Shown here piece by piece: positions 9,001 to 63,000 of a DNA stretch of 64,000 bases. The notes beneath the pieces were generated by a model. That model was not told the DNA's origin and searched no databases. It saw nothing but the letters and a program-made list of their open reading frames with translations. The DNA comes from Candidatus Omnitrophota bacterium (GTDB lineage: Bacteria; Omnitrophota; Gorgyraeia; Gygaellales; Profunditerraquicolaceae), in NCBI GenBank assembly GCA_041662125.1, contig JBAZTA010000002.1:76154-140153 (forward strand), given 5' to 3'. Both the position numbers and the translations under genes were made by a program. Position 1 is the first letter of the stretch. Every line of letters starts with the position of its first letter.

Positions 9001-12000
9001 CAATAATAGGCTTTGTGGTTTTATACGCCACCAGCATCTTTATTCTCCGTTAGAGAAATCTTACCTGCCCCCTGAGGATGACAGCGTGTATGCTTTGAGC
9101 AAATTAGAAAGAATAAAAATATATTTATCTAAAATGGCCTCGAATGGAAAGATGCGTTTAGTGTTTTCATACCGCCAGGATGTGCAGAAGTATGTGGCAA
9201 TGATCCGCGATAGTTTGCTTGCGGCATATCATAACTTTGATTTACGGTTATTATTGATCGATCGTCAAATAGGCTGGGATATGGATTCCAATATCATTGC
9301 AACGGTTGATGGTATAGGGGTGCGCAGCTGGAGCATGCAAGGCCAGGAGCGCGGCCTGGTGGTCCCGTGGGATGAAATGGATTTATTGCTTGATCAATAT
9401 GCGTATGCCGTGGTCGATATGCGAGGGCAAGTGCTTGCTGCTAAAAAAGTATCGTCACCTCTTCTTGATTCGAAAGTTGAAACTAAGATGCAGAAGAGCA
9501 AGAAGTCATGGCATGATGCTGTTTTTGGCAGGAAAAAGCTTTACGTTTTCTTATCTGCTATTTTATCCCTCGCCGTTATTACGGCATATTTTCAACCTAT
9601 TATTCGCAGTAAATCATTCCAGGAAAAAACCCAAATACAGAATACAAAAACCTACCAAGGCTTCGATGTATATCAGTGGATTGAAAAATTAGCCAATGGC
9701 AATTCACAGGAAAAAGAATGGGCGCCGTACGCCATCAGTAAGACCTATGGACAAGAGTCTTTGGGGTTGCTGGTGAAAATGCTGCGGCAGAAAGATCTGT
9801 CTGATGATACTCTTGAGCGGGTTTCGCGCGTATTCTTCCTGGTCGGGCCTGATTCTATTCATATTCTGCTTAAAGAAGCTGCAAAGAAAGATCCGCGTAT
9901 GCGCGCATATGCTTATCGCATTATTGGGGCTATCGGTAAATACGGGTATCCTGAATTATTCCGGCATCTACAGGATTACCGATTAAAACCCCATGCTCTC
10001 CGAATGCTCTTGTTGATTGGCCAGCAAGAAGGGTTTACGCGTCAAGAGCTCAAGAAAGCAATTAAGGTGATCACGCATATACAAAAGAAGAATGTTTATC
10101 CGCAAGCAGTAGTTCTTTGTCTTATTAAATCCTATACGGATGATCCATCGATGATTCCGGTTATTGATAAAATTCTTAAGAAAGACATTGTTTTCCTTTC
10201 TGCGCTTCGATTAGCCTTCACTCAGCAGGATAGGGGCGCTTTTGAGTATTTGTTAAGATCCTGGAACCGTACGAATAGTGCCCGTAATCACTTTATATTT
10301 GTTGTTTTAGAAGAAAAACGCGCATTTTCAGTCCCATTCTTGGAAGCCAAACTCAACGAATATTTGCTGAACAAGCCAATTGATGCCCAGAAAGAAGAAT
10401 ATATGCTGCTTTTAGAAAAACTCGATCCGGGCGCGCATTTTAATTTTGAGCTTAAGGAAAAAGCCAAATTAACAGAAGATACGATAAAGAGGTTCTTGCG
10501 GAATATTTTCGCGCCTTCTTCCTCGCCTGTTCAGGCGGCTGAAGAAAATTCATTGAAAAAAGATTTGGGAGGAACAAGAGATTTCGCAACTGCCGTTGGG
10601 ATGATCAAGCATGAGGACAATCATCGCGCTGAAGAGTATTTGCATAAATTGCTGGAGATGGTGAGAATAAACAAATGTTTAACCTCGGAAGAACAGGCTC
10701 TCGTCAAAGATATTATTGAGAGTCCGCATGTCTTGAAAATGCTGCTTGATAGTAATAATGCCCGCTGGCTTGAGAAAAGTGCGATCAGAGGGAAACCGGA
10801 AAGTAAAGCGATCGTAGGGCTGCTCGACCGGCAAGATAACAGAGTCATCATTGCTTTAGATAAAATGTTAAGGCCGCAGAAGGATGGAGGCATCCAAGAG
10901 GGCTCTGTGCTTTTACGCAAAAGCATTTTTAAATTCATTCTTGCTGTTGCTTTTGACGGCAGTCAGCATATCCGTTACGTTGAAAGGAAAGCTTTGCCGC
11001 TGTATTATAAACAAATTAAAGCGCTCGGGCATATTGTCATTCTTGGACAGGTGCCGCAAAGCGGGGAATTAAAGATAGGCAGGAAATGGGCAAGGCTTGA
11101 TGCGTCCCTGTATGGGTTATCGAACTATTTATTAGAAATGAATAACGGTATCCCGGTAAGAATGTTTTTCTTTAAGACCCATACCGCTCTTGAATTTCTC
11201 CCGGCCGTCAATAATAAAACCGGTGGTATTGAAGTAGTTCATATGGGGCAGATATTCCGGGAAGTATTTAAAAAATTATCTGATGTTACCCTGCTGACAT
11301 ATTTAGGAAGCCTGGGAGACTTAAGTATAGGGGGCGGACGCCCGCACAGCGATGGGACGGGGTATGAACCTTCCTGGTCGCGATTTTATTATCATCCTTA
11401 TGAAAAAGTAGAAGTATTGGTAAAAGACGGTTTAGTCTGGAGGCTTACTTCTTTGGAGAGTGATCTGGACCGCGCGTATCTGAGGATCATGCATGTGCCG
11501 ACGAAGCGCATTACAACAACGGCCATAAAATTAAGCCATAAAGATGTATCCCGCCTCAGTGATGAGTATCAGATCCATAATTATCCTTTGGATCAAGCGG
11601 GAAAATTAAATATTGATTCCCAGACGGTAATGAATTTCGGGAAAAGCCGCGCTTTCCATCGGCTTACGATATATGACATCCGCAAGAATAAAAACGGAAA
11701 AGTCTTTGCGGTGGCGGCAAAGACTTTGTCAGGTGTTGATAAAAGGCTTTATATCATTTACGCGCTGCCGGATTATCCTTTCAGGTTCAATAGTGAGCAG
11801 ATCTTAGCTGTCTTTAAGATGCACCTTGCTGGAGTCCTTGAGGCGTTGCCGTTCAATGCTTTTGTCCTGGAAACGATAATCCACAAAGATCAACGTTTGA
11901 GCGTGGGAGAGTATCTGTGGCGTTTAAAACATATTGCGAACAGTATTCCCGTAAACTTAGCCCATGCAGTTGCCAGGATGATGTATGTGGCAGGAAAACC

Positions 12001-15000: not shown

Positions 15001-18000
15001 TAAAGAGGAAACTGTGCGCCGTTTCCGTGAGGCATTAAAGATCATAACCAGGCGTCACCTGGGTGAATCGAGAAAGAACAAAAAAGATTCATATATGATG
15101 CATCCGCTTGATGTGGCGATAATCGCGGCAAACCAATTTGGTATTCGCGACGAGGGTTTATTAGAGATGATTATTTTGGCGGCGCTGCTGCATGACACTA
15201 TCGAAGACGGCGATATCAGTGACGCAGAATTGCGCAAGAGATTTGGTGATGATATTTATGCGATTGTCAACTTGCTCACCAAACGCAAAGTTAACGGTAA
15301 AGCTGACGAAATCGCGTATCTGCGTCAACTCTGTGCTGCTGTTGGAGAATTAGGCTTTATTGCCAGGTTGATCAAGATCGCCGACCGTATTCATAATCTG
15401 CAAACTCTGGCTGGTGTTGAACATGATAAAGATTTTCATCAGAAAACCATGGTTTCGACACTTGCTGTTTTTATACCCGAGGTAATTGATACGCTTGATT
15501 TTTATGCTCTCGCTGACAAAGAGCATGAGCGCGTATTACGGCAGGCTAGAGGAGTTTTCGCGCAGCAGGTTATTGATACGGCAATAGAATTACATTTCTT
15601 GAATCGAAAAGGCGAAGTGAGCTTTAAGAATTTTAAAGAGTCCAGATTAAACGGCGAAACGGGAAAACGTCCGCGTTTAATCGGGAGGGATTTAAAGAAT
15701 CTGTTTAAACGTATGCAGCAATTGGCCTCTTCAATCAAGGCAAGTTCTAGCATCAGCGCAAATCCTGTTGCCTCCCCCATTACAGTTGAAGAAGTCAGGC
15801 GCCTGGTGCGGGAGCATTTGTTGCCGGTTACCGGCGCGCGGCATACCTTAAGCCATGGAGATGATGTTTCTGACCTTGCCGGGTATTTAGCTCAGCATTT
15901 AGGGTTAGCGGAGTGGGAATCGATGATACGGATTGCCAGCCAGCTGCATGATGTCGAGAAGATACATAATAGAGAAGTATTGATGCTGGTTAATTTCCCT
16001 GGCGATTTATCCATGAATCAGCGGTTATTTGTACAGAAATATCATACTACCCCTCCGTTTATGGGAGTTAAGGCAATGGGAATAGAATTAGCGCCTTTTG
16101 TAGAAACTCTGATCGAGTTTCATCACCGCCCTCAGATGTGTAATGGGAATAATGCTATAAATACGGCTGCGCTTTGCCTTTCGTTGGCAGATCTGATCTC
16201 AGCGATGAGCGCTCCCCGGCCTTATTTTTATGTGGGAGGCAATATTGAAGATAGTAACAGTATTCCTGCTTGGCTGCGTGGTTTCTTATCCGCCAAAAAT
16301 ATTGTATTGGAAGCGCGCGTCTGGGAAGCGATCGAAGATATGGTAGTTGATAAAAGAGCCCGGATCCAGCAGATCAACGGGCTGAAGGCTGATGCGGTCG
16401 CTGATACCGCTAAGAGTTGGTTTGTTTGCGGGCAGACCCAAGAGTGCCTTGACGCCCTTGCTGAACAGATCCAAGAGTCTCGTAATCAGCAGAGAATAAA
16501 CCGTTTGTTGACTATACTTGTTGATCCAGTTGTGTCTGCGGTTTTAAGTGATGGAGAAATGAGGGCGCTCTTTGCGAAAGTTTTGTCAGCAGCACATTCA
16601 AAAGGGGAGTTAGTAGTAAATCATATGAGTGTTTTAGCTGCAATCCCCGCAATTCCCCGCCAATTTAAACAAATCTATTCAGAGATCATTTCTCGTAGCT
16701 CCTCCTCACCGCTGGCGTATTTAACAGCGGCAAAAAAATTATTTACTATACCACTTACTATTTTATTTGTAATTCCTTTGACGCTGATTTTTATAATAGC
16801 GAGTATTTTACACGAGTATGTTCACCTTTTAATGGCTAAGATATTTGGCCTGGAGACAGGAAAGGTGAGATTATTTGTGGAAGATTCGAGTTCCAATGTA
16901 GAAGTCATGGTGCAGGGAGCAGAAAACTGGAAACTTGTTTTTATATATTTGGCTGGTCCAGCTATGGATTTATTTTTAGGGGCAGTCTTTTTATTCTTGA
17001 TCTACTTGAACGGTTTTTCCTGGGGATGGCTAAAGATTTATGTTAATGTTGCACTTTTATCAGCAGCGGGGCTTCAAATACAGTCAGTAATTAATAGTCT
17101 TAACCCCAAATATAGCACAGATGAAGGCCTCAAGAGCGACGGTTATTTAGCTTTGGAGTGTATAAGAAATATTAAGGCAGGCAATAAATTTTACGATGGT
17201 GATAATTTTGATAGCTCCTCGCCGCTGACTCATTTCAATTTATCTGAGTTTGCGGATAAGCTATTAAGAAGAATGCGTGGGAAATATATACGAGGGTATA
17301 GGTATTTCTATGAGATTGCAGAAGATAGCCGTAAATGCGGTGCTTTGTGGGTCAATGATTGTAGGGTGGATGCGAATATTGGTAAGGGTGTATATGATTT
17401 TGTTTTTCCCCACCCCTTTGACCAAAATCTTGTAGTAAGGATAAGCAAATCAATTGATCTCTGGCGCCCAGTTTCAAGGAAAAAAGAATTCCAGAGGTTC
17501 CAGCAGTTGGCACGGCTCGGCATCGGGCCGCAAGCCTTCGCCTGGTGGATGCGTGATCAATACTCTTTTATGCTTGTAGAAAGAGTACAGGGCAATTCGC
17601 TGGATAAAATTGTTCAGAAACGGCTTCTTACTCAAGGAGAAATTAACTTTCTTAAGAGACTTTTGGATGTTTTGATTGAAAATAGGATTTATATAAGCGA
17701 CTTTAAACCTGCTAACATTATGTTTACTTCAGAGAAGGCTGTTATCTGTGACGCAATGTGCGCTGAAAACGCCCTTGCAGATGATCGCGCTGCACTCGCA
17801 GAGCGCTATGTTCGTATGATGCGTCCGGATCCATGGATTGACGTTGATCCTGATTTCGAATTAGAGAGGTATTTGCTTTCTTCTTCGCCGCTGGGTGAAG
17901 AAAATAGAACCATCCCCTTTTCTAAAATTGCCTCTTTGAGAGAAAAGGGTTATATCAAGAGAGAAGAAGAAGTCAGATTTCTTGCGGCACAATTAAATTC

Positions 18001-21000
18001 TAAAGATATGGCCACAAGAGAATCTGCAGGCCGCGCCATAATAGATGAGGTACTTGGAGAAGAACATAGCAATTTGCGCCTCAGGGCTTTTAAGATATTA
18101 CTCCCCATTATTGTTCCAAGAGTAATGAAAGCAGGCGCGAGGCTGCCTTGCTGGGAACAGGTCGATCTGCATACTCACACGGTAGAGTCTGACGGTTATT
18201 CTAATCCGGCAGCGGCTATCCTGGAGGCATTTGAGCGCGGTATGAGCGGATTGGCCATTACCGACCATAATACCTTCCCCGAAAACAATGAAGCTTGCAG
18301 GGCGGTTAAAATGCTTAACGATCATCTGCGTTCGTTCGGAAAAATCTTTAACCTTATTCCAGGCTTAGAGATAACCACTTATTTTGAAGGGGTAGTGGTG
18401 CATCTTTTAGTTTATCTGCCAGGGTATTACCGACGCCGTAAAGAATTATTGAAGTTTGCCTCGGCGAAGGCGCTTTTTGATAAGTTTTTACTTCACGATA
18501 GAGAACAAGTAAAGCAAACCAGGAATTTAATGGAAGCGATAAATGAGGCGTATCCTGATTTACAGATGCAGTGGCAGGATGTAGTGGCGGGTAGCCGCGG
18601 GAAAATCTACAAAATTGAGGCTACCAACGCGTTGTTTCGGAAATATCCTGATAAATTTAAAGAATACGGTAAAGCCAAAGATCTCTGGCATAAATGGCTG
18701 CCGTCAGAATTAAGGAAGAAAACAAAGGTAAACGTGGACTATTACGCCTCTTTTGAAGAAGTGATCGCATTCGTCGCGCACACCGGCTCAAAGCTTGCTA
18801 TTGCCCATCCGAATGAAATTCTAAGCGAAGAAAACAAGCTAAACAAAAAGAAAACATTTCCAAGGCTGCTTGAGCATTTGGCCGAATTAGCTAAACGGGA
18901 GATTATCAATCCGAAATCTTTGTTAGGCGTTGCCTATTACAGCGAGAAACTCACGCTTAAGAATTCGTTGCCTGATAAGCAGGTGCGTGGATATGTGTAC
19001 TATCACTACAAAAAAATAGTAAGCCGTTATCCATTCCTCAAGGGCCTATTTTTGCTTTTGCCGGAATCAGACAGCCATGGAAAGCTTTCTACTCCTGCCG
19101 GCAGGGGCAGAGATTATCCGCGTAACAGGCAGGTATACACAGGCAAGGTAATGCAGAGGGTATACCTGCCTGTTCCGACGCGGCTTGCATCTTCAGCGTT
19201 GAAAATTAAAGATATGTTTTTCTCTTTGAAGGGCGCAATACAGTTGACAGAATGGGATGATAATAGAACCGGCCTAGAAAATTATTTAGGCAAGGTTGTA
19301 TTTCCAACCGGCAGATTACATGAGGTGCGTAGTTTAATAGAAGAAAATGTTCCGCTGATTAAGATTGCGGTGGAAGGCACACATTCTCAAGAGCCGATTC
19401 CCTGGCAGGTATTTAACACCTCATTTAGAAAAATTGGAAAGAGCTTCAGCCGTGCGCTCGGATGGCCTCTGCGCCGTAAGATTAATCAATTAGCTCATTC
19501 TAAGATCAACCAGCCGTTATATGTGCTTGATTGGGGAGCCGGCAATCTAAGGGCTGCTGTAAGATTAGGGAAAATGCTCAAAGCAAGAAATGCCTATATC
19601 ATCGGCTTTGGGCAAGATTATGACACGCGACTGATTAAATGTCCTTATGATAACGTAGTGTATATTATTGATTCTGCGCCGAATTTGTTTAGCCGCATAG
19701 AAAAACTTCTGCCCGCAGGCCATACGCTTGATGTAGTTTACAGCTATCTCGGTCTGGGGCATCTGTTATGGAACGATAGAGCCGGTTTCATAGATTATCT
19801 TGAGAAATTAGCAGGATTGCTTTCACCCCATGGAGTGATTGTATTTGATGTATATGGTCAAGAACGAGATGTTTTTCTACCCTGGCGAACCCGCTTGGAG
19901 AAAACGTTTAGGCATTTTGAAGTTTCTGGTGAAGTAAAAAGAATTGTTAATGGGAAGGAATCTGAATATCGAGTGGCATTTTTTGAAAAGGATAGTGCCG
20001 CCGCTGCGCTGGATACAATAGGTCATAATACTGTTAAAGAATCAACAAGCCTTAAGATGTTAAGGTCTCAAGTAAAAGATTCCTTGCCTGTTGGAATACA
20101 AGTAATAGAAAAAAAATACAATGGCGCGAGTTTCCTTGTATCAACATTGAAAGTATTCTTTTCGGCTTTGCGAGGCGGGCACGTAAAGTATATTGTGAGC
20201 ATTTTCGCATTAATGTTAATCTTGCAGGTAAAATGCCCTTCCATTCTGCCTCAAGTGAACAAAAGAGGCGAATTAAGAGAGATAGTGATAAGGCAAGGTG
20301 GCTGGAATTTTGATTTGGCTATTTTTATAACTGGGGTAATTCTTACCTTGCTAAATTTTATGTCAGGTTTAGGGGCGAATATTCTGCCTTTTACTTCCCC
20401 TTATTTGCTGGTGTGGGTACTTAATAAATATTTCAATAAAAAACAAAGAGATAGGCTTCTTATACATGAGTGGTTGCACGCGTATCAAATAATCTTGATA
20501 TATCATGCGGGACGTAATGTGAAAAGATTCATTACTACACATATGGCTGCACTTGAAAACAACACAGCACAATTCGAGTCTGCATTGTTAAGAGACGGTG
20601 TATATATTCCTGAAGTATTACAAAAGTTTGAGAAAGAAATGAAGTCTCTGATTAGGATTTTAAGCGGTCCTGAATATAATCTTGCGACTTCTAAAACCCG
20701 TGCCCCTCATTCCGATAATACAAACCCTGTTTCCTCGCCGCTGACAGTAACAGACGGTTTTGAGGAAATCATTATCCCAGCAGACAGACAAATTCGGGCG
20801 CATATACGCCGGCAGAGAGCAGATGATACAAATGCCGACAAGCCAGTGGTAATTTCTGTCCATGGTTTAGGCTGCGTTATTGACCCAAGAAAGCTTCTTC
20901 GGTATTCTTTTCAGGAATGGCTGGGCTGGAGGCGTCCGTATTACTGGCAGAACCTTACTCATGAACAAGGTTTATTGAAGCGTGCGGCAGAAGAGTTTCA

Positions 21001-24000: not shown

Positions 24001-27000
24001 GATTATTGCTTGGCGCACAATAGAAAATGCATTTAATGCGATATATAACAGGAAGGACTTGAAGATTGCATCGTTGTGGACTGCCGTAAAAGTAGCCGTT
24101 AATAGATTAACAGGCAGAACAGAGGGGGCGCTGGCAAAACATCTTCCTACTGCAGCAAAGACAATAGATGAAGGCGCCTTGGAAGCATTGTTTGCTTTGA
24201 AAAAGCCCGCTGATATAAATTCTCTTCCTGAGCAATTCGGCCCTGTAAAAGCAGCACTTGAGTTTTTAAGAAATAACCTGCCGCAGGATGTTGAGATTAT
24301 AATCGCCGGCGGTCCGGTGCGCGATTTATTGCTGGGGTTACGTTTTAACAGAGGCGATAACGAAGCGGGGATTAAGGACGTGGATGTAATTTTAAGAAGC
24401 CCTTTAAGGAACGATCGGGAGTTAAGAGCGCTTAAGAGAGAACTTAGCAGAAAAATAGAAAGTGGGCAAGTCAGCGGCGCAGAATTAGTAAATTCCCACA
24501 TCAAGTTTAACGGCTTATATATAGATATACTTAACGTAACTATGGATAAGAAGCATGTTATCGCGTACCAAGGAAAGCCGATGGATGCGCGTATTTCTAT
24601 AAATATATTAGGCATATCTTCGCGCGGAAGATTTATTTATACCCCGCAGGCATTGCGCGATTTGCAGGAGGGGGTAATCAGGTTTGTAGGCCCAGACGGA
24701 CGGGAGATTACCGGCACAAAGGCGCTTTCTGTGCTGATGATTATCCGCGGGTTGATACTGAGGCATCAGTTTGGTTTTGCATTTACTCCATATGCGGCAA
24801 GGATTGCCGCGCGCTATGCTTATGGCAAGGTTTTAGTAAAAGATATGGAATTTAGGGAGGCTACTGATATTTTGCGTGAAATCAAACTCTTCGAACTCGT
24901 CCGCTATACCCGCAGGGTTTATTATTTGAATGGATTACTGCATTCCTTATACAAGAAGGCGTTGGATCCGCTATCGGTTACGAGGGACTTGGAGGCGATG
25001 GGCTTAGTTGGAATATTGCGGCGGTACGTTGATTTCTCCGGCCTTGAAATTCAGAGGATGTCTGGAGTTTCCAGCTCCGCCGCCTCGCCGCTGGTTTTAC
25101 GCATCAATCTTCTCGATGCGTTCAGGAAACAAGCATTTGGGCCGCAAGGCGGTATGGTTGGTATCGCTTCTTGGTTTGGAGATACATTTCATGTGGTAAC
25201 TAATGAAATTTTACATCCTCTGGCTGCTCAAATTGCGTATGAGATAGGCACGCGCGCGCATTCCGATAGACAGTTAGTATATTATGTTAACGCCGGGCAG
25301 GAAAAAGATATAGAGTTTTTGATAAACACTATCGCAAAATACATGGGGATTCATAAATATAATGGATTTGAAATTCACGTCGTAGTTACTAATGTTGATC
25401 CTCGTGGCATAGATAAAGCGAATGCAACATTGCAAAGGCTCAAAGAATGCCATCGTAATCTATTTACATTGGATTATATTGTTTTACCGTTGAATAACAC
25501 ATGTGATAAAAACGTAAATAAGTTCACTACAACCGTAAGAAGTATAGGTGGCTTTAATGGGATTATGTGTAATGTCGGTGGTGATATATGGGCACATGGC
25601 ATTGTTGCTCAGCTGCCTGGCATGCTTAGGCCTGGAGGATGGCTTCAGGTAGATGCCGACCAAAGATTTCTCGCCAAGATGCTTTGGTATTCTGGAAACA
25701 AAGGTGATTTCAGAAAGACGATTATATCCAAAGGGAATACGTTGTATTTAAGGTACCGTGACAATAACGATATTCTTAGCGAGTCTGAGAAAATCGGCGC
25801 TTCGCCGCTGGCGCAAAGACGCGTTGAGAACATTTTACCGGTCAGACGACAAGGGAAAGAGTCCGTATTAATTATCATCCTTGACGACTTTGTAATAGAC
25901 AGAGAAAGGCCTTATCATGTCCCTCACGGCATATTAATAGAAAATTTGTTAATTAGATATTGCGGCAATAATAAGCGTATACAGCTGAAACGGGTGAACT
26001 CCGAGATCTCATTGAATAAAACCATTTCTGTTTCGACATTGCAGCAAATAGAAAATATTGTAAGTGGTAATTCTTACAAATATATACTGGTGAATATATC
26101 CGACTATATGACTTTTGATAATAGCGTTTATTATGATATCCATAAAATAAATGGAATATTGCCTTTTGAATTTGTATTTGAACTGGGAAAAAAAGGCGTG
26201 TTTTTTGTAATGTGCGCGGGAAACGGGAGGCAGAATAGTCCGGGCGGCTATAGATATTACAAGCATGACAGATTGGAAAATGTGATACCCGTGGCTGCTG
26301 CAGAAATAAGCAAGACTGGATATACGAAGGCTTATTACAGTTGCTTTGGTCCTGATGTTATGTTTTGCGCAGATGGCAGCGATAGCCAGAATGCGCAAGG
26401 TACTTGTATCGCGGCGGCAAGAATATCCTTAAAGCTGTCTTCGATATTCACCCGTTGGTCTGTTAGCGAAAAAGAGGGACTGGGAATTATTGAAAGAGAA
26501 TGTATCGCCATGCCAAATGATTTTTATTTTAGACATGGCTTATTAGGCGTCGGATATGTAGAAGCCGCCTCATCGCTGGCGCCAGAAGAACGGATAAATC
26601 AACTACTCTATAGCAAGGGTATAGAAACTATTTTCGAGAAGCATAAATCAAAAAGCCCAGCATTAAATATCGAAGAATGGAAGCGAAATTTAGCAAACTT
26701 CTTGACACTTGGTTTTAAGCCGATGACTGAAATGTTTGATGGCATAGATCAGCGCAGTGATAAGGAGAAGATAACGTTCCTGCGGCAGATGATACAAGAA
26801 ATGAAAGAAGGACAATGCCGCTGCAGGCAGTTAGACGGTTTAGAATTAGAACATCTTTTTTTGCTGGAGCAACCAATTGATATAGACGCGGTATTGAGCG
26901 TACATGGTTATCTCTTAGGTAAAAGAATAATGTTTTTAACAGATCATGAGTATTTCGAGAAATATCGCAAGTTTTATGAGGAAGATGAATATATGCGTGA

Positions 27001-30000
27001 AGTTTCGCTTTATGCCGCGAAAACCGCATATTTGTTTCTCTGGGTGGCCGAGATATTGTTTCGGAATCATACTTCAACCTCCCGCATTTCTATATTCAGA
27101 GATCATGTTTTTGTCAGGAGAAGCATAAGAGACGATAATGATTTTCCTCAGGAAGAAACATTTACCGGCATACCACAAGAAGAGCTGAGTTTGATAGCTA
27201 ATTTTATTAGAGAAGATATCGATATTAGTTTTAATGGTGACAAACGGCTCTTTTATTATATTAACGCTGGGCATCAACCGGAAATCACATTCCTTATAGA
27301 GAGCATCGCCGACTATATGAAGCGTAAAGGGTATAGAGGATTTAAGGTACATGTTGTAGTAACAAATATAGTGCCACGGCGCGTAGAAAAGGCTGCAGAA
27401 ATACTCAATAATCTCGCCGCTGAGTATTCCTCTTTATTCGCGTTAGATTACATTACTTTTCAGTTGGATAATACGTTTGATGAAGGAGTGAAGCGATTTA
27501 TTCAATGTGCAAAGAATTTCGGAGGTTTTAACGGTATCTTGTGCAATGTCGGTGGAGCTACCGGCGCGTATGAGGTTTTGGCTCTTATACCTCAGGCATT
27601 GCGTAATGATGGCTGGTTGCAAGTGGATGCAAAGAAGTATACCTTGGATTGTCTCAGAAAGGCTCCAGAAGAACGAGTATTTAAATATATAGATAAAAGC
27701 TCAACTTATTTGACGATTTTTTACGGATTTATCAGCTCTTCGCCGCTGGAGTTAGGTGCATCCTCTAATTCTTCTGCGGTGGCTGCTCAATCTGGCGTTT
27801 ATTCTTTGGCGCAATTAACACAGCGATTAATAGAGGGAAGGTTTTACAAGTCGTTAATTCCTGCTAAGTCCGGGGCTGGATTGTATATTGATGATATGCT
27901 GGAAAATCATATGTATCCGCAGCCGTTGGCGCCGGAGAAAAGGAGTTCTGAAATAGATATCTTGGGCAAAAGAGGCATACTTAATTACTGTAAATTTCTT
28001 TGCTCAAGGTTCCCCGGGTTATTTATGAAATTTGGAGAATACGGAATTCTTGATAATGCATGGCGGCCAAAGCTATTATCTAAAGAGCAGGAGCGCGTAA
28101 TTTTTCTAACAGAAGTATCAGGACAGTATGCCAATCCCAGCCTTCTCTGGCATTCAGTAACCCATCTTGCGCAGATGTCAGTTGCTGCAGAACGGTTCCG
28201 GGGAGCGCGTGTTTTAGATTTGGGATGCGGAAGGGGAATCTCTTCGCTCTTTGCCGCCTTGCTTGGCGCAAAGACGGTAGTTGGAGTTGATAATGATCCT
28301 TCAGTAAAAAAGATTTTTGAAACACAAAGAGAACTAAATCAAAGCTACTCCGGAAGATCTGTATTTATTGAGGGTAGTTTTGCCGAAGCCGCTGTGACTC
28401 ATGAACTGGAGAAGTATCTGCCTTTTGATATTGTTATGGCAAATATCGGCCCGCAGCAATACGGCGATGCAAATAAGGAGGCGATCGAACTGATTGTTCG
28501 GCTAAGGCAAAAAAGATGGTCAAATGATTTTGTAGTGATAGGGAGCGGTTCTGGTATGGGGCTAACCGCATATGAGCATTGTGCAGTGCCTGGATATGAA
28601 TATAACTATCAAGAAGAGCTTGATTTTCTTCGGCTTTACTTTGCAATAAGTGAACCTCATATTATTGTCGGGCGTAGCCGTCCGTCTTTATTGTTCCCGG
28701 AACAATGGTTTCTTACTACAAGTTATTTACTCGAGGCTGCGCAGTTAAACAAATGCGCTTCTCAGCTCCCCAAAATAACATTAGAAGCTGTTATTGCAGA
28801 AATAAATAATATATCGCCTATTTATGCTTGTGCAGTAATATTGATTAACGCAAGAATTGTAGCTGGTAAGAATATTATGCGCTGTTGGATGCCTTCCTAT
28901 TATCAATATCAGATAGAGGCATCGGAAGATACAGATCCTTTTGAATTATTGAAGTTTGCTGAGCGTGTTTTACGGATTGATCATCATTCCGGTTTTGCTC
29001 CGAAAGTCAGTGAGCTGTTAAGAAAGTTTGAGAAGATATCTGCTGCCTCGCCGTTGGCGTCCTCTATAGAGCTTCTTATATTTGATTTGACTCAAACACT
29101 TTGCGAATATGGAGAATTTGGAAGAGTAAGAAAACAAATATCCTATGCATGGGCTATCCAGGAGTTATCCTGCCGAAACAAAAATTTAACAACAGCTGGA
29201 TTAGAGGAGATTATCGTAAAGCTTGATAGCCTTACCGGGGCGCTTGCATCACTGGGGCTGTCTCTTGATAAATATTTTGATTATTTAGGCCTCAATCTTC
29301 CTGTCACAGCTTATCCCGAGAGTGATCCGGAATTGCGTCAGGTTTTACTACAGGAACAAAAGAAAGGTTATCGTTTGGCTCTTGCTACTAATAATGGAAA
29401 TCTGGTTACTCAAAATATACTTCATAGCCTTGGGGTAGAGGATTTATTCTTATCTGTTATGACACAACAAAGTATGGGCAAGGGTAAGCCCGATCCAGGT
29501 ATATTTTATGAATTGTGTAAGCTGCAAGGTGTTAGTCCTGAACGGGCGGTTTCAATCGGCAATAGTAGGCAACATGACCTGGAAGCCGCAGCTCAAATTG
29601 GTATGTGGGGGTTACACGTAAATGGGCCACGAGAACTTAAGGATACTCTGCCTGGCCGGCTCGTTGAATTAAAAGAATTGAGAAATAAAATCCTGAGAGG
29701 GCGCAAGGTGATAGTGCCTGATTATTTGGTTGTACCTGTAAATTTGCGCAGCGCCTCGCCGCTAACACAAAATAAGGATGGTCTTAATTCTTTTCACAAA
29801 GCCGGCAGCTCAGCTGTCACGGCGAATTTAAAAACAAAAGAATTCTGGACAAAAGCAAAATGCGAAGAAATGCTAAAGAATCCTCCATCCAATGTTAAAG
29901 ACCCTAAAAACTCGTCTCATTGGGTCAGTGCTGGATATAGCGGTATGATAACGTTCGTATGCAGGGAATATGGAGGTTGGCCTAAGTTTATCGAGAGCAT

Positions 30001-33000
30001 GGGATATGAGCCTATTATAAGGTCCAAAGAGGTTTGGAAGCAAAAATATGAAAATTGGGGAATAGTTCAATCAATCGTTCCTGATTTAATCAAACATAAT
30101 GCTATTATCGGATACGGGAGGGTTTTAGAAGATGATGAAGTAAAAGCATTGGCTGAAGAAGTGCAGAATGGCAATAAGGCTGCCAGAGAAGTATTAATAG
30201 TTACAAATGTTCCTATGGTCATATATCGAGTGATACGACAATACCCCAGTTTCATTAACGAAAGAGATGATTTAATTCAGGTAGGTATTTATGGCCGCGG
30301 TGATAGAGTAGGCGGTCTTGCTCGCGCAGTAGAACGTTTTGAGCCTGAGAGAGGAATTCGGTTTATCTCTTTTGCATTACAATGGATTGACGCGGTTTTA
30401 TTACAAGCGGTACGAGAAATATTAAATTTACAGAAAAAAGAATTACTATGTAATTATAGCTCTCGTGAATCTTCCCAAAAAGACCCAATCAATTTAATAC
30501 CCGATAAAGCAGATGTATTTAAAATAATATCAGGCGACGCCGATTTACGCGCAAGACTATTCGAGGCTATTGAATATTTGCAATTGGAGATTTCTGAAAG
30601 GGATAAGGATATTTTGTCGCGGTTGCTTGATGCTGAAAAACAGTCATATATAGCCAACCATTATAGGATAAAACCTCAACGCGTACAGCAAATTTTTAAA
30701 AGATTGACCAAAATGTTAAAAGAAATAATTGATTCAGATGAAATTAAATATCGGTCACGCAGTGCCTCCCCGCTAGAAAGCGCAGAGCGGTTCACGCACG
30801 GACCGTATCCTTTCCAGGCTTATTGTTTCGAATATGGATCGGTAAGCGTCAGTGGATACAATAGCCAAGACAATATGATTGAAATTGAGTTTCCCTATGC
30901 GCGAAAAAAGCCGGCGTTGAAAGCGTATTATAACTCTCATAAATTTGCCTTATTAGGTTCAGAATCACATAGGCGCTTAATCGAGGAGAGATACATAAGA
31001 ATATTTAATAAAAGCGGGATAATTGACCAGCTGATTATCTATAATTATGTTAGAACGTTTTTTTCTCAAATATATAAGGAAACCCGGCTCTATTCATCAA
31101 TGCCGTCTTTCTATCAGGACGATACTGATATTTATAGGTTGAGCAAAATGCCTCAAGGTCTTAAGATTGCTTTCGAAAAAGTATTTCAGATGATAAACAG
31201 TGAGTTTAAAATTTCACCGCGAAACTTAGAAATGGCAGCGCGTATGACATTTCTTTTAGGAGATGTGCACTATTTCCAGAGCGGGAAAACTCGTTATTTT
31301 CTGCCTAACGATATTAAAGATTATCTTTTAGAAAAGATTTATCACGAGGCAGAGAAATGCATCTTCACTTTGCAGGCTGATGCAACAAAGTTGCGCGATA
31401 GAGATATGATCGGTTCATTGGCTCGGCAAATAGCAGATTTATTACAGAGTAGAAATGACGCCTTTGATATTATTAGTGTTGTGCCGTATCTAAACGAAAG
31501 AGAAAATAGCGGGATTGTTCCGCTTACTCGGGAGGTAGCTGGTAATACGCAGTCTACGTACCAGGAAGTCTTGAAAGCAATAGAATTTGAGAAGAAAGAA
31601 GAGGTGGAGAATGGAGGCGTAAGCAATAGGGTTCCTGAATATGAGGTTACGGATGTGGATTTGCGAGGCAAGAGTGTGCTTCTGCTTGATGATGCAGCCG
31701 CAGAAAGAAACGTGCATCTGGCTTGTATGGAAAGAATTCTGAGGGCAGGAGCTACTCAGGTGTTTGTAGTAAGGATCGGTAATGATTTTCAGGAAGTTTC
31801 TGATCAAAAACAATCAACCTCGCCGCTAAGATTGTCACAAGATGATAATAAAGAAGTTACCCGTCAAATTAATCTCAAACTAGAAAGCTGCGGTTTTAAT
31901 ACCTATAGGACACTTAAAACTTTTAAATTCTGGCCATGTTTATATGAAAGAGAATGGGTAATGGTTAAGGAGAAATCCGGCACAGACTATTATTATGGTT
32001 TTATCAGGTTTGGCAACCTGATATTTATTGATGAGCATATTTACTCTGATTTTTTAGGCCCTGATCTTAGAGACGTTTTGAAAACCAATTCCATACGATT
32101 AGTAAATAGCAGCGCTCATAAGATGTTTTATTATTTCCCTACGTATACGTCTCTGGCGCTTTTTGCCATGATTCATACTGTTGGTGATATGCATGTAATT
32201 GATTGTGGTTCTGGCCGCGCTGAATTATCCTTGGCGGCTCTTCGATTAAATTCCAGCGTTGATTCAATTGAGATTGATAGTACTTTGCTAGAGATCGCAA
32301 AGCTGCAAATGAAAAACAACAATTTTAAAGAGGGGATTGATTACCGTTTACTTAACGGCGACTTGAAAGATCCCTCTTTGATTGTCAAATCCCTTCAACC
32401 CCGTGGAATGAACCGGGAAATCGCTATCGTCTCAAATATTGGTTCATGGGGGATGTATTCGGTAACGAATGCCGATAGTATGAAGCTTATTCCCTATCTC
32501 CCGAATGTAAGGTTATTTATCGGCTCTGGATATAAGATTAACGAGGATGACAAATATAGAAGCATGTGTAGTCATATGGCTCTTATTGAGCAAAAGTACG
32601 GTTTTCATGTTGAGTTAGAAGTTGGTTCTTATAATTGTGCTGCCTGGGTGGCTCGTAAACCTCGCAGCAGTTCGCCGATAGATAGGCGGTTTCTTGTCCG
32701 CGAATTAGAAAAATGCCTGTATCAAATGCCCTATGGCTTACAGGACAAAATATATCCTTCTGCATTCAATGCCCGGCAAGAAAAACAAACATACGGCAAC
32801 TTCATTAAAAATCAGCTCTCCCGCATCGAAAAACAATTGCCTATTGATACGATGACGGATATTTCTAATCAAGATCTGGGTTTAGTCGTTGATCAGGCAA
32901 AGCGCCTGCATCATCAAGGGAAAATGAAGAGCCTGGCGTTTCTGTTAGCCAATATAGACAGGATACATGAAGCATTCGAAGTCTGCCTGCTTGATCAAGT

Positions 33001-57000: not shown

Positions 57001-60000
57001 GTATGTAATTAAGGACCGGATCTTTACGCGCACAAACCTTGAATATTACTTCCTGCTTTATACATTTATGGGGGACCTTTCTTATGCGCAAGCCACTTTC
57101 ATTACGTCCCGCGTTGAGGAGAATATTCAGGATAATGATGACGTGATCGCGTTATACAACCTTCAGGAACAAGGCAAGGCTGTTTTCTTGCGGCAGGATA
57201 AGTTGTTTAACTATTTTGCGTTTAAAACTCATGAAACCGTAGAGGTCAAGGAAATAGATCTGGGGGATAAAAGAGTCATTTTGGTCAAAGATCCCCAGGG
57301 AAGGCTTTATGGACAGTTGGGCATTGATGCCCATATCAAATTGGCCCTTCAGCAAAGCCGGGTTACCTGGGATGTTACGGAGGAAGAATCCCGGTTTTTG
57401 GCAGAGGCGATACAAGGCGTATACCCGCCAGCGGTGCTAGTACCTTTGGAATTAGGCGTTGGGAAAAATGATTATATCAGGTACATAAAGAAAGATATGG
57501 AGAGTTTTATCGAGCAAGGCAAGGGGACCTGGTGTTTCCCCGATCATCTTTTGGATATCGCGCAGCGGTTCGGCTTGTATCCATCTGACCTGATAAAAGA
57601 CGCCTTCGTGAATAAGAATTTAAGCGAGCACACGCAAATAAGATATTATACAAAACTCATCGAGAATATATTTAGAAAGCAATTCCCTATCTACAACAGT
57701 TGTTCTATTTTATATGATGAGTCTCTGGCAGGATTATTCAAACTCAAAAGCGCGGCTGATTTTGAGCAGTTAGCGAAAGATATGTGGGATAAAACCGATT
57801 GTATGCAGGTCTATTTGAACGCAGTGATGATGCCTCATGGAGCATCTTTTGAGATCGGCTCTTTGCATCAGTTCATGAGCCGGGTCATCCTTCCTGAGCT
57901 AAGCCGTATACGCCCGCAGGGTGAGCCGTTGCGCATGCTCTGTTTGGGCTGCGAAGAAGGTGCTGATGCGTATATGCTAGCCATGGAATTATTAGAAAGC
58001 GGATGGGATACAAAAGCGCGGCCTGTTGAGATCACGGGCGTTGGCATTAACCGTTTTGCGATTGAAATTGCGCAAGCCGGGCATTTTAGGCGAAATAATA
58101 TCGATAAGCTTTCCGAGGAAACAGTGAATAAGTATTTTGCTTTGGACGCAGAAACCGGATTGTATGTAATAAATAGCCGTTTGAAAGCAATGGTGAGTTT
58201 TCAAACGGCAAACTTCTTAGAAGCGCAAATCCGCAAACTCTTGGGGGGCTTTGATTTTATTCTGCTTAATCAAATGATCGATTGCTTTTCGCATGAGGCC
58301 CATATGCCAGTGGAGCGGGATATTTTAAGAGAAATGCTTTCCCCGGGAGGATTTTATACCACTCACTATTCGCCCTCGCGTGTTGTCCCGGAAGTTGAGG
58401 TTAGTATGTATCATTTAACAGATAATCCTTTCAGGGAAAGTGTTGTTCAGAAAATTTGTTCTGAGTCAAGAATTTATAACGAATATATAAAAAGTTCTTC
58501 TCCTTTGACGAGTGATTTAAAAGGCCTGACTATTCTTGTGACTGCCGGGCCAAATCAGGAGCGTATCCCTGGAAGGCCGGAGTATATTACAAATTTCTCG
58601 TCAGGCAAACAAGGATTTGCCATCGCTGCTGCCGCAAAGGCGCGAGGCGCGCGCGTTATCCTTATCGCTGGGCCTACGTATTTAGAAACTCCTGATAACG
58701 TTATAAGGGTCGATGTGGTCACTGCCCTGGAAATGAAAGAAGCGGTAGCAAAATACCTGCGCTTTGCCGATGTTTACATTTCAGCCGCGGCAGTCGCCGA
58801 TTACCGCCCGGTAAAGCTCGAGAAAGAAGGCAGGCGCGATTTTACCGTAACACTCCACAATAATCCCGATATTTTAAAATGGGTCGGCAGCCTTAAGAAA
58901 GAAAAAAGTGAGTTTTCATCTCTGGTGGTGGTTGGTTTTGCCGCAGAGACTGTGGAGCCGGGAGAAATGGTGGAAGAGGCGCGCCGTAAATTTATCGCCA
59001 AGAACATGGATTTTATTTGCGCCAATAGAGTTGGGCAGGAGGGAAGCGGATTTCGCAGTGAAAACAATAAAGTAGTAATAATCAGGGAGAATAAAGACGA
59101 TGATCATTGTTTGGAAGCGTCAAAATCCGATGTCGCCAATAAGATATTAGATGCAGTTTTAGATGTCCGTGAAAGGCGTTCGCTTGGATCTGTTATCAGG
59201 GCTGTGGAGTTGGAAGGAGAGCTTCAGGAACAAAGCCAAGCGCTGCGGTCTACCCAGCAGGCGCGGTATCCGCCGTTTGCGGGCATCGCGGGAAAAACGA
59301 TTTTGATTTCTGCCGGATCGACAGAAGAATCCATTGACGGGGTCAGGATCGTCAGCCGTGCGGTAAAGTTCGATTTACCGTACGCGATCGCTGCAATAGC
59401 TCGTATAAGTGGGGCTAAGGTGGTCCTGATAAGCGGACCAACTCATACGCCTCCTCCCGAAGGTGTCAGATTTATTCAAGTAGCTACTGCCCAAGAGATG
59501 GCAAGACAGATAAGAAAATACCTCAAGCAAGCGGATATTTTCATCAATTTAGCCCGCCCGCCTTTTATCAAACCACGGCAGCAGCAATCCCAAAAGATCA
59601 AGAAACAAGGCAAGGAACTGACACAATGGTATTTTACCTTAAACGATGGGATCTCTCGTTTAGGTGAACGAAGCAGGCATTTAAATAGGATTTTGGTTGA
59701 AGACGGATATGAGTCAGTTGATTTAAGCGAAGCGCTCTTTTTTATCAGGGCTGCGATAGCAAAAGTGCTATTTCTCGCCCAGCCTCTTTCTTTATGCGCC
59801 GCGGAAGCTCCGCAAAGGAGTTTTGAGGAATATCGGGCTATCGGAGTTTTTGTGGTGAACAGCCATGGCTTGAGAATAAACTTTTCGCCTATCGAACAGG
59901 CTTTGAGTAAAGTAAATGATTATCTTTGTGAAAAGGGCCGCTTGGCATTAGTCAGGAATGCGTTGCGTGCGCAGGGTATCCAGGCGGAAAAAATAGATGA

Positions 60001-63000
60001 GGTAGTAACGCTGGCTCAAGATTATCTTAAGAATAGAAAAATAGAACTGGAACAGCTCAAAGAGATCCAGTTTTCTTATGCCCTTTTAGATTGGTTTAAG
60101 GCTGCGCAAATCCTATCTCTTCGCAAAGGTGAGTTTGTTTCTCTGGCAGAGCGGGGGGATCTGGCGCTGGTTCTGCACCAGGTAAAGGTGCGCGTTATAG
60201 CTGCCTCATTACCGCGGCATCCGTGCGCATCATCCGCGCTTAAACAAAAGATAACTCCTGCGAAAGTATCTACGTTGTTTATTGTTGCTATCCTGCTTAC
60301 CGTAGTTAATGCCGTTGCAGTTGTCGTTGCCGCTCTCTTTGGAAGCGAGATGACCATTTATCTGGCATCATTGGTATCGAACATCATTATTGCTCCTTTT
60401 GCGGAAGAGATTTTATTCAGAAGAGTTATATTTAAAGGTTTATTGGTTGATCGGTATAAGGTCAGTACCGGGAAAAGCATTTTTATAAGCGCGGCTCTTT
60501 TCGCGGCGTATCATTTAATTATCCCGTTTTTTGCCGGAATCAGGTTTATACCTATTAAGCAATTTTTGTCCGGGGTCGTATATGCGTCTGTGTATGTTAG
60601 GACACGATCGTTACTGGCTATTATTATTCTTCATGCTGTCAGTAATATAGTTACCGAGACAGCTGTTTTGTTCGGATTTATCAATCAAATGCCTTTTTAT
60701 GCTACTGCCGTAATGTTGATCGCAAGCCTGATTTTATTCCCCCGTAGGCCTGTTAGAAAAGCTTTTTCGAGCGGTGATGAAAAAGAGAAACTCAAAGAAA
60801 AGAAAGGCAAAGTTCTTCAGGAGAAAAAAGGCGCCGCGGCAGAAGGCCGCAAAAAAGGTAAAAAGAATGCTGCTTCTCAGAAAAAATCCAGCTCAAGCGC
60901 GCTTGGGGAAACGAATAACGAAAATCTGACTTTTGAATGGGGCAAAGACCGAATAGGGCAGTATTATTGGGACGCAGGATGTATCTCTATTTATGCTACG
61001 GAACAATTATTTGTGCTTAAACTTTTTGAGAATCCTTTGACACTGCGTTTTACGTTATTGATCGATAAAGCCAAAAAAGAGACTTTGATCTTATACGGCC
61101 CGCAAATTCCATTATTCTTCTGGGAAAGAGATAGTGAGGAGCGCCAGCAGCGTTATCAGCATAGGGATGAACCGTCTCTGGCAGTTAAATTCTTTCCAAA
61201 ATACCGGGAATTGCAGATCAGGGTTAATGAAGAGGTTTTCCAAGATTTATTGAGTCAGAATTTCCCGCTTTCAGGAACCTTTCCGGTAACTATGGAGAAC
61301 GGACTGCATTGGAGATTTGTGGAACACTTTACCCCGCTATTTTCTGTCCCTCCCGGGCATAGTAATAGGATCCATATTACTGTTGCGGGTATTGTAAGGG
61401 TATATTTGGAACAAAATGCCGATACCCAAGCAATTAAAAATATCCCGGAAGTATTGCGGCAACAATATATGTATAATTTTAATAGCTTGATAGAGCTGCT
61501 TGGTTTGCTGGTGGGGTATCCTGTTAAATACCTCAAGCGATACTCGGGGCTTTCAGCTTGCGGCGCATTGCATGAGTCTGGCGATTCCTTTGTTGAAGTT
61601 CTCGAAGGTCTTTTTGACGATTTTTTAAGGATTATTCCGGTAACCTATGATGAACATAAGAAGCGGCTTGTTTACAATGTTGCCTATCCTTTAGAGGGGA
61701 ATATTCTTCTTACTAAAACTCAAATTACGGACAGTATGATGAATTATCCTGTACCTTACGGAAAAAAGGTCGCGGTTTTTGAGATGTCAGATGGCGATCA
61801 TTTAGCTTTTGCGGGAAACTTTGTCAGCTCCCTTCAGGAAGAAAATGAGGTTAGGATTTTTACCAGTGGACAGCTTCCTTTAGAGCAGGTGACAGGAGAT
61901 TATGAACCTGATGTTATTCTGGTTCCGTATTGCCCGGATGCCAGAAGGCTGGTACGTCAGTATTCCTCTGTTAGGCCGCGTGAGTTGATGGCGTTCTATT
62001 ATGCTTCCCTGGAATTACCTCTTGAGTTTAATCTCGTCTTTTCTTTTGGTGAAGAAACCGCAGGAAAAGTTGTGGAAGCTGTTGGCGCGCATAAGTCACA
62101 GCAGGAACGCAGAGATTACAAAAGTTTTACCCGGTTTATCATGCAATATACGGGCGCTTTAGCCGGTTACTACGGTTTCACGCAGAAAAAAGATGCTTAT
62201 GCTCACGCCTTTAGTGTTACTCGCATAGAAAAAGGAAAAGTTTTGCCGGTTGATCTTTCAAAACGGTATGCGCTGGCATTTGAAAAAGAAAAACCGCATG
62301 CTGGGTTTACTCCTGTTAGGATAAATAATAATACTTATGTAAGAGCTTCTCCTCCTCATCCTGATGATATAGAAATCGCCGTAGGGGGTTTGATGGCGCA
62401 GCTTGCTCAAAAAGGGATAGAGGTCACAAACTTGATCTTTAGCAGCGGTGAGCGCGGCGTAGTCTTGAGTGAGGCGCAGGAGAAAAAAGGTTTAACCGGT
62501 GCCGAGATCCGCCGTGAAGAATTATGTAATGCCACAAAAATCTTAGCTCCCGGCGGAATGGTGAAGAACATTCATTTGGATTATGACTATACCTACGCAC
62601 GAGATCCGGAGGGGACACAAGAACAGTTGTATGCACTGGAAAAGGAATTATTAAAACAGCGTTCTTCCGGTAGAAATATCCCAGAAGTGGTTTTATTTAT
62701 TCCTCATCCTCGTGACGATAATAAAACCCATAGAATATTTGCCCGGCTTTTAGAGCAGGTGTGGGGCCGGTTATCTCAAGAGCATACTATTACTGTTACG
62801 GTCATTTATTACTTGGCGCCATCAGCCGGGAAGTATAACACTTTTTTCCCGACGACATATAATGTTTTGCCGCAGAGCGCTGATAATGTTCAGATGTTGA
62901 AAAAGGTTAAGTCCGTTGAGCCGTTTAAGCGGGCAATTTCTATTATTATCCCCTCGCGGACAGGCCTTTCAGCCCAGCAAGGCCCGCACCAGATGGAATT

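Follow-up and report, generated by a model that had tools for sequence, protein, structure and literature searches.

A single giant open reading frame (ORF) runs through a stretch of 64,000 nucleotides from a Candidatus Omnitrophota bacterium (assembly GCA_041662125.1, contig JBAZTA010000002.1, positions 76,154 to 140,153 of the forward strand; this whole stretch is called the window below), and nucleotides (nt) 16715–17212 of its plus strand almost certainly encode a true homologue of the M50 metalloproteases, reduced to the minimal three-helix core of a site-2 protease (S2P). The module has 166 amino acids (aa), aa 5572–5737 in the translation of the window, in which aa 1 is nt 2–4; all features described below lie on the plus strand. 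Frame 2 of that strand is free of stop codons over nt 2–64000, which makes one ORF of 21,333 codons open at both ends, and the gene carrying the module extends beyond the 64 kb. The same frame is the sole one open at all three of the motifs on which a first-pass annotation had based its proposal of a site-2 protease, and no competing ORF of at least 40 aa overlaps the flagged stretch on either strand.

Several kinds of search identify the module. The Pfam profile PF02163 (Peptidase_M50) scores 28.7 bits (E = 1e-6) on a 500-aa piece of the ORF and 27.2 bits on the isolated module, for a gathering cutoff of 27.2 bits, which bears out the M50 module claimed before; on a 1000-aa piece the score is 26.3 bits, under the cutoff, so that the Pfam result is borderline, and the match spans the first half of the profile only. 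A profile built from 120 canonical M50 proteins, with the giant sequences removed, matches aa 5591–5670, from the HExxH helix to the AGP helix, with 39.2 bits. A phmmer search against 1.84 billion representatives returned ten proteins, namely P0001, two large multi-module proteins (P0002 and P0003) and seven small proteins, six of which carry the canonical HEYGH...LAGPxxN...NLLPxxPxDGG at a library-wide E of ~1e-4. The top match, P0001, was set aside as an artefact, since it is a 17-fold tandem repeat that sums weak NPK...SD matches. Word-indexed homologue searches, with the module and with a three-sequence alignment, gave no match. The M50B-like label of the first-pass annotation does not hold, as PF13398 reaches 21.3–25.1 bits for a cutoff of 26, over profile positions 18–94 of 201 only, and M50 proper scores better. 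The S-D-G of the module may nonetheless resemble the third motif of the PF13398 family.

P0002 is 38% identical to the window over the whole module and keeps HEY[VA]H, [AS]GPxx[DE] and xDG. A genome scan for relatives gave a single one, L001, which is about 80% identical and keeps these motifs too; it comes from a metagenome-assembled genome (MAG) labelled ‘uncultured Planctomycetales bacterium’, and a metagenome scan gave only the contig already known from P0002; this M50 subfamily is very rare or poorly assembled, with three sequences in the searched collections. A profile of the three giant-protein modules alone, run against the PDB, finds RseP-type entries (E = 1.3e-4 and 5e-4), and the significant PDB sequence matches for the module are all S2Ps.

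A single-sequence AlphaFold model of the module was poor, with a predicted local distance difference test (pLDDT) of 53, and was discarded. When AlphaFold2 was given the window module aligned with its P0002 counterpart and the 120 canonical M50 proteins, the pLDDT rose to 81.9 and the predicted template modelling score (pTM) was 0.75. In module numbering, this model has a helix at 2–43, a hairpin at 48–64, helices at 71–99 and 105–129, a loop, and a last helix at 142–155; it thus shows the conserved three-helix core with a β-hairpin after the HExxH helix. Foldseek places MjS2P first and SpoIVFB second, with all other matches at E > 1. Because canonical M50 proteins guided its alignment, the model speaks for compatibility with the fold and is not independent proof of it. 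By profile and fold, leaving the third ligand motif aside, the module is an M50 member, and by score it is not M50B.

Transmembrane (TM) helix 1 (nt 16739–16810, aa 5580–5603, LFTIPLTILFVIPLTLIFIIASIL) consists of 24 strongly hydrophobic residues, module residues 9–32, with a mean Kyte-Doolittle hydropathy of 2.61, and falls within model helix 2–43. An intact HEYVH (nt 16811–16825, aa 5604–5608) follows it directly in the same continuous model helix, so the membrane setting claimed for HExxH stands. The H, E and H of this motif do not vary among the 122 aligned M50 sequences or among the three giant-protein modules; H5604 and H5608 are predicted zinc ligands, and E5605 is the predicted catalytic base. 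The β-hairpin between helices 1 and 2 (nt 16856–16906, aa 5619–5635, with model strands at module residues 48–54 and 59–64) matches in position the membrane-reentrant, edge-strand region of S2Ps, with EDSS in place of the canonical GG. TM helix 2 (nt 16931–17011, aa 5644–5670) bears L-A-G-P-A-M-D. The LAGPAMDL within it (nt 16949–16972, aa 5650–5657) aligns to the ‘laGPlaN’ of RseP and M50 and is the AGPxxN motif of helix 2 with Asn changed to Asp, not an LDG motif. This position (module residue 85, D5656) is Asp in the window and L001 and Glu in P0002, and hence acidic in all three.

TM helix 3 (nt 17027–17095, aa 5676–5698; model helix 105–129) is weakly hydrophobic, with a mean Kyte-Doolittle value of 1.07. 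Past it lies the divergent third motif, N-P-KYSTDEGLK-S-D-G-Y (NPKYSTDEGLKSDGY; nt 17102–17146, aa 5701–5715). All three signatures had been placed in hydrophobic segments, which is correct for HExxH and AGP; the third sits in a hydrophilic loop (Kyte-Doolittle about −1.7). In module numbering, P131, K132, G138, D142 and G143 are the same residues in the window, L001 and P0002, and so are the H, E, H and G-P of the other motifs. D136 has the canonical spacing from the Pro but is Lys in L001. Therefore, the third zinc ligand is most likely D5713, the Asp of S-D-G, whose place at the start of the last model helix mirrors the LDGG of canonical enzymes, with E5708 as the alternative candidate. The module lacks PDZ and CBS domains as well as further helices, and is a core-only S2P. 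Its catalytic motifs are kept across deep divergence, and we infer that it is an active protease, which is somewhat more probable than inactivity.

The borders of the module are sharp. It is delimited exactly by two copies of a short recurring peptide, SSSSPL upstream (nt 16697–16714, aa 5566–5571) and SSSPL downstream (nt 17213–17227, aa 5738–5742; kept in L001, SSSSL in P0002), and helix 1 begins 9 aa after the upstream one. Other examples of this junction are at nt 17879–17893, 29042–29056 and 58493–58507. The most over-represented short peptides of the ORF are SSSP (14 against 0.22 expected), SSPL (12 against 0.37) and SSSPL (7 against 0.02), and the strict pattern [SAT][SA]SP[LIVMA] occurs 26 times for an expectation of 0.41. 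A logo of 57 sites from the window and its relatives, in which the variants SSSAL and SSSSL are seen, reads [SAVG][SA]-S-P-[LVIM] with unconserved flanks. The ORF is made of at least 33 units separated by this motif. The conserved linkers of the first-pass annotation are thus real, but their regular spacing is not, as the intervals range from 161 to 1,845 aa. Not one Pfam domain straddles a junction, and the HAD, DFP and PolyA_pol domains begin 3–25 residues after one. Since the codons of the junctions vary, the signal lies at the peptide level; a recombination site or repeat acting in the DNA was ruled out, as the codons differ for the same motif. A literature search for ‘SSSPL’ retrieved nothing relevant.

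The junctions are also where the relatives differ. In L001, one frame is open across 18.9 kb, and its modules, 77–83% identical to those of the window, have been inserted, deleted and reordered; a block of ~780 aa is inserted exactly at the upstream junction of the M50 module. Twelve of the 14 breakpoints lie within 25 aa of a junction (median 4.5 aa), where 1.3 are expected and none of 5000 randomisations reaches 12. Assembly chimerism was considered and rejected as the source of this shuffling, the junctions being without long shared DNA identity. A more distant relative, L002, is the sediment-metagenome contig ADZX01000494.1, which encodes EFK96408.1; its giant coding region (~8,400 aa) shares only three BLAST-detectable modules with the window, M50 (37%), CPBP (55%) and DFP (48%), with the order of CPBP and DFP inverted (window nt 58508–60652, plus strand, against L002 15037–22674). 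The L002 region is itself divided among three long ORFs, each in a different frame and with short overlaps between them; their ends may be real gene borders or frameshift errors.

The residue that follows [LVIM] is one of the bacterial N-degron residues (L, F, W, Y, R, K) in 2 of 50 cases, against a background of 34% (p = 4e-7); at the next three positions, these residues are not depleted. At the level of sequence statistics, such a depletion fits cleavage after [LVIM]. Both this test of the P1′ residue and the test of breakpoint proximity were devised after the data were seen. With its small residues, Pro, and Leu, Val, Ile or Met, the junction follows the pattern of the subtilase substrates Suc-Ala-Ala-Pro-Leu/Phe-pNA; Ala-Ala-Pro-Leu is a routine substrate in subtilase assays, and AAPL has been used with proteinase K (PMC1847811). 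Two other possibilities were considered. Signal peptidase I was rejected as the junction protease, since it is well established that Pro at +1 blocks it, and a cut between Pro and Leu was thought unlikely, as it would expose a Leu N-degron.

Protease-type modules of three kinds occur in the same chain, M50, CPBP and an S8-like module that scores below threshold and has Cys as its nucleophile, and the M50 core is the best supported of them when sequence and fold are taken together. The CPBP (Rce1-like) intramembrane protease domain (nt 60362–60652, aa 20121–20217) scores 58.9 bits with PF02517, confirming the one announced by the first-pass annotation, and has sub-threshold NCBIfam matches of the MrtS/MrtJ type. 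The subtilase-like module named there is also present (nt 25811–27748, aa 8604–9249), but below threshold: its Pfam S8 score is 19 bits for a cutoff of 21.8. By eye, it has the Asp, His and Asn motifs. Its local alignment with a manually entered sequence of subtilisin BPN′ scores 80.5 against 39 ± 6.6 for shuffles, and pairs the oxyanion residue N155 with N and S221 with C (GTS to GTC). A search of PDB sequences with this module gave no match. Its C-terminal part is 45% identical to the preceding module, aa 8365–8603.

A further module bears on the need for processing. A complete sigma-70-family module with regions 2 and 4 (nt 29765–30775, aa 9922–10258) is bounded by junctions; it scores 43.4 bits with TIGR02937 (cutoff 42.9) and 23.9 bits with Pfam Sigma70_r2, has its best partial matches in RpoH and SigK, and carries an N-terminal extension of ~115 aa. 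It would need release to function, and cannot plausibly work otherwise. In the same ORF, this module and the cytoplasmic-type GlpX, ThiG, DFP, PRK and PolyA_pol modules are joined in one chain that has ~20 hydrophobic segments.

We propose that the M50 module would be a zinc-dependent intramembrane protease with a second-step (‘site-2’) role: its targets would be hydrophobic or membrane-associated segments in the products of the giant protein, and it would thereby free membrane-tethered modules rather than cut hydrophilic junctions. The junctions, in turn, would be cut after [LVIM] by a subtilase-type enzyme, the candidate for which is the S8-like Cys variant encoded in this ORF. The process would then have two steps, a subtilase-type cut at the junctions followed by M50 (and CPBP) cuts at membrane-embedded segments, in analogy to the subtilase S1P and the M50 S2P of eukaryotic SREBP processing. 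The reasoning is that both types of intramembrane protease belong to the small set of modules common to distant giants, and that the chain carries cargo that tethering would keep from working; hence the role of the module is probably in giant-protein maturation. The particular claim that the module acts on the giant protein itself is put forward tentatively, and so, as a working scheme rather than a conclusion, is the whole arrangement of an M50 second-step protease on the giant protein with a subtilase-type enzyme at the junctions.

It is tempting to go one step further and regard the ORF as a true cellular polyprotein, made as one chain of dozens of enzyme and regulator modules and then resolved into released modules by an S1P/S2P-like cascade wholly in cis, in which a built-in Cys-subtilase-like protease would cut after the junctions and M50 and CPBP would make the later cuts in the membrane. 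We consider this doubtful at present. It is similarly speculative that the released units would include the sigma factor and the CoaBC-, ThiG-, GlpX- and CCA/poly(A)-polymerase-like modules, and it would be a bold guess that the junctions double as in-frame seams for the gain, loss and shuffling of modules between lineages. Self-processing of the ORF, as proposed by the first-pass annotation, is plausible in that the M50 module is delimited by junctions and many features of a polyprotein are present; the part that gave the cutting of the junctions to the M50 module is probably not correct, as the junctions look like substrates of subtilases and not of S2Ps.

The alternative that fares best is that the module is an active S2P whose substrates are other than the giant protein, either a separate membrane protein, such as an anti-sigma factor, or membrane proteins of a prey or host. 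It is well established that the characterised S2Ps all act in trans, often in the control of sigma factors; the closest small relatives of the module are ordinary SpoIVFB- or CBS-type M50 proteins; published readings of giant proteins from the Planctomycetes–Verrucomicrobia–Chlamydiae (PVC) phyla favour prey-directed or surface functions; and the modules shuffle as independent cassettes, so that neighbours need not cooperate. However, the module lacks its own start codon, so that it can be made only within the giant chain, and it has none of the PDZ or CBS domains that gate substrates. M50 and CPBP are, moreover, among the very few modules kept between distant giant ORFs, and this points to a function connected with the giant protein. 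We regard a substrate in trans as unlikely, although it is a serious competitor of the proposed action on the giant protein.

The points that weigh against our proposal are best given together, as some of them favour a second alternative, in which the module would be a relic without catalysis, a three-helix membrane anchor or pseudoprotease derived from an S2P. The third ligand motif has diverged: it is hydrophilic, contains a six-residue insertion, is left unaligned by Pfam and the canonical M50 profile, and has Lys in L001 for the Asp of canonical spacing. The canonical GG edge strand is lost. The ratio of nonsynonymous to synonymous substitution rates (dN/dS) against L001 is 0.48 for the module, above its neighbours and the 0.10–0.19 of most aligned segments, as under weaker constraint. 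That an S2P scaffold can persist without catalysis is illustrated by P0003 (a complete protein of 2,027 aa, from a Logan assembly), which has two degenerate M50-like copies at residues ~925–1000 and ~1875–1945; in these, HExxH is lost (EESAHW and EEAVHW), N-P-x-S-D is kept, and each copy follows an S-P-A-R-G element. Other difficulties concern the scheme as a whole. With a three-helix core, the parts of the chain before and after the module come to lie across the membrane from each other unless a cut separates them, which does not suit the cytoplasmic-type HD and kinase-like neighbours well. The subtilase-like module is under its Pfam cutoff, and engineered Cys-subtilases are poor proteases. 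The depletion after [LVIM] could simply be a sixth position of the motif. To these may be added the dependence of the structural model on canonical M50 proteins.

Two observations speak against the relic. The H, E, H, G-P, the acidic residue of helix 2 and the D-G are all kept across 38% identity, which is unexpected if an anchor were drifting. The high dN/dS comes from a low dS, 0.22 for the module against 0.6–1.0 elsewhere, and its dN is ordinary (0.106, compared with 0.10–0.115 elsewhere). The dS of the next, kinase-like module is also low (0.28), and these two modules form a block (window nt 16715–17890, L001 8323–9516) for which the sequence comparison hints at a more recent exchange between the lineages; the high ratio is consistent with such an exchange. 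We consider it rather improbable that the module is a relic.

The model of the first-pass annotation, an autoprocessing polyprotein in which the M50 module itself cuts the junction motifs, is very improbable. The module does lie directly between two junctions, with helix 1 only 9 aa from one of them, and a few other junctions directly precede hydrophobic helices (aa 32–36 in the window and two in P0002). It is also established that SpoIVFB cleaves a prosequence that is membrane-associated and not transmembrane. On the other hand, most of the 26–33 junctions are hydrophilic and hundreds of residues away from hydrophobic segments, whereas the known S2Ps (RseP, SpoIVFB and MjS2P) cut inside or beside hydrophobic helices at the membrane, and it is for this reason that the M50 module is thought not to cut the junctions. 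No S2P is known to recognise a motif like S-S-P-L in a sequence-specific manner, and the motif suits the preferences of subtilases better. Finally, a chance assembly of motifs in hydrophobic sequence, to which the Pfam score at the cutoff (26.3 bits in the longer piece), the three occurrences of HExxH in the ORF and the tendency of hydrophobic queries to draw spurious matches might point, is effectively refuted, since four independent searches converge on M50 only, the significant PDB sequence matches and the top structural matches are all S2Ps, and the order and spacing of the motifs are kept in a relative of 38% identity.

The giant ORF as a whole (nt 2–64000; G+C content of the window 42.6%) tiles many unrelated enzyme, regulator and protease domains. 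Pfam finds ~20 distinct families, none of them dominating, and there are ~20 hydrophobic segments. Besides the modules discussed above, the matches include HEAT, GlpX-like fructose bisphosphatase (FBPase), HD and HD_4, a kinase-like module, PHP (twice), a PrmA-like methyltransferase, HAD, ThiG, PRK/uridine kinase, CheR, two DFP-matching stretches (one complete and one partial), PIG-L and the PolyA_pol head domain. No SecA-like or C39 domain was found by Pfam tiling of the 64-kb window. In its length of >21,333 aa, its many Pfam families and its TM segments, the ORF agrees with class 1 of Nielsen & Lui (at least 10,000 aa). The window carries no marker genes that would place its host. The HAD module (nt 29057–29764) begins 4 aa past a junction, and its motif I is F-D-L-T-Q-T, in which Thr takes the place of the second Asp of DxDxT, as it does in P-type ATPases; not all modules of the ORF need be conventional enzymes. 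Some modules are paralogous to one another, namely aa 5965–6914 and aa 12681–13131 (44% identity over 431 aa), and aa 15717–17561 and aa 3511–4790 (28% over ~420 aa, twice). Thus, part of the length of the ORF results from module duplication.

HExxH occurs three times in the ORF, where about 0.6 occurrences are expected. The third is HEDNH at nt 10610. The second, HEWLH, had been placed within a TM cluster at nt 20466–20480; it is in fact at nt 20465–20479, ~30 aa past the TM cluster and behind a basic stretch, and thus outside any TM helix. Searches with two M50 profiles revealed no second M50 copy in the ORF and left the HEWLH region unmatched, and this region likewise had no match in Pfam or NCBIfam.

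In Omnitrophota and other bacteria of the PVC group, giant genes with 10,000 to 147,000 codons are now known to be frequent, and the literature explicitly leaves open whether their products act as single chains or are cleaved into pieces. The locus supplies testable candidates for an answer: a junction motif at the borders and breakpoints of modules, three protease-type modules, and a sigma factor as cargo. If processing proves true, this would be the first cellular polyprotein of such a scale, and the junctions would offer a rule by which giant proteins could be split before their structures are predicted and their parts annotated. Should processing be refuted, the module would still stand as the smallest S2P core known from a cassette within a larger protein.

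The comparison with known systems begins with the M50 proteases themselves. Like the enzymes of the SpoIVFB/MjS2P type (PF02163; PDB 3B4R and 8VJL) and RseP (7W6X-Z and 9J82/3), the module has HExxH at the cytoplasmic end of a TM helix, followed by a β-hairpin, then helix 2 with AGPxx(N/D), a third helix, and a Pro...Asp-Gly element with a short helix. It differs from them in consisting of the 166-aa three-helix core only, with no PDZ, CBS or gating helices; in the change of Asn to Asp or Glu in AGPxxN, the loss of the GG strand, and the replacement of NxxPxxxLDGG by a hydrophilic N-P-x9-S-D-G with an insertion; and in its place between junctions inside an ORF of >21,333 aa, without a start or stop of its own. 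The M50B-like proteins of PF13398 are also short membrane proteins bearing HExxH, and are set apart by the sub-cutoff score and the better match to PF02163.

Giant multi-enzyme ORFs with scattered TM helices have been described from Omnitrophota and from other phyla of the PVC group (West-Roberts et al. 2023, bioRxiv 10.1101/2023.11.21.568195; Nielsen & Lui 2026, bioRxiv 10.64898/2026.06.07.730766). Self-cleavage by built-in C39 or S8 peptidases has been proposed for them, and the authors call the cleavage points unknown (bioRxiv 10.1101/2023.11.21.568195; 10.64898/2026.06.07.730766). Neither report mentions M50 or linker motifs, nor does that of Nielsen & Lui mention CPBP or cleavage sites. 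The ORF of the window shares with these giants a length of >10,000 aa, many unrelated Pfam domains (HAD, HD, methyltransferases, HEAT, kinases and peptidases) and scattered TM segments; here, however, the closest relative is labelled Planctomycetales, and there is no SecA-like or C39 domain in the window.

The eukaryotic S1P/S2P cascade that processes SREBP and ATF6 offers an analogy, as it combines a subtilase-type protease, an M50-type protease and a tethered transcription factor, whose counterpart here would be the sigma-70 module. The two-step cut of that cascade, first at a hydrophilic and next at a membrane site, is likewise what we propose for the window. Unlike in the cascade, a single polypeptide would hold all the elements here, the subtilase-like module carries Cys instead of Ser and scores below threshold, and the processing is a prediction. 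Viral polyproteins, such as those cut by the 3C protease of picornaviruses, NS3 of flaviviruses and Mpro of nidoviruses, share with the giant ORF a long reading frame, a recurring junction motif at the borders of modules, and proteases encoded in cis. The giant ORF, in contrast, is cellular, ten times or more longer, and composed of housekeeping-type modules, and the proteases that it carries are of intramembrane metallo- and glutamic types, with processing, again, as a prediction.

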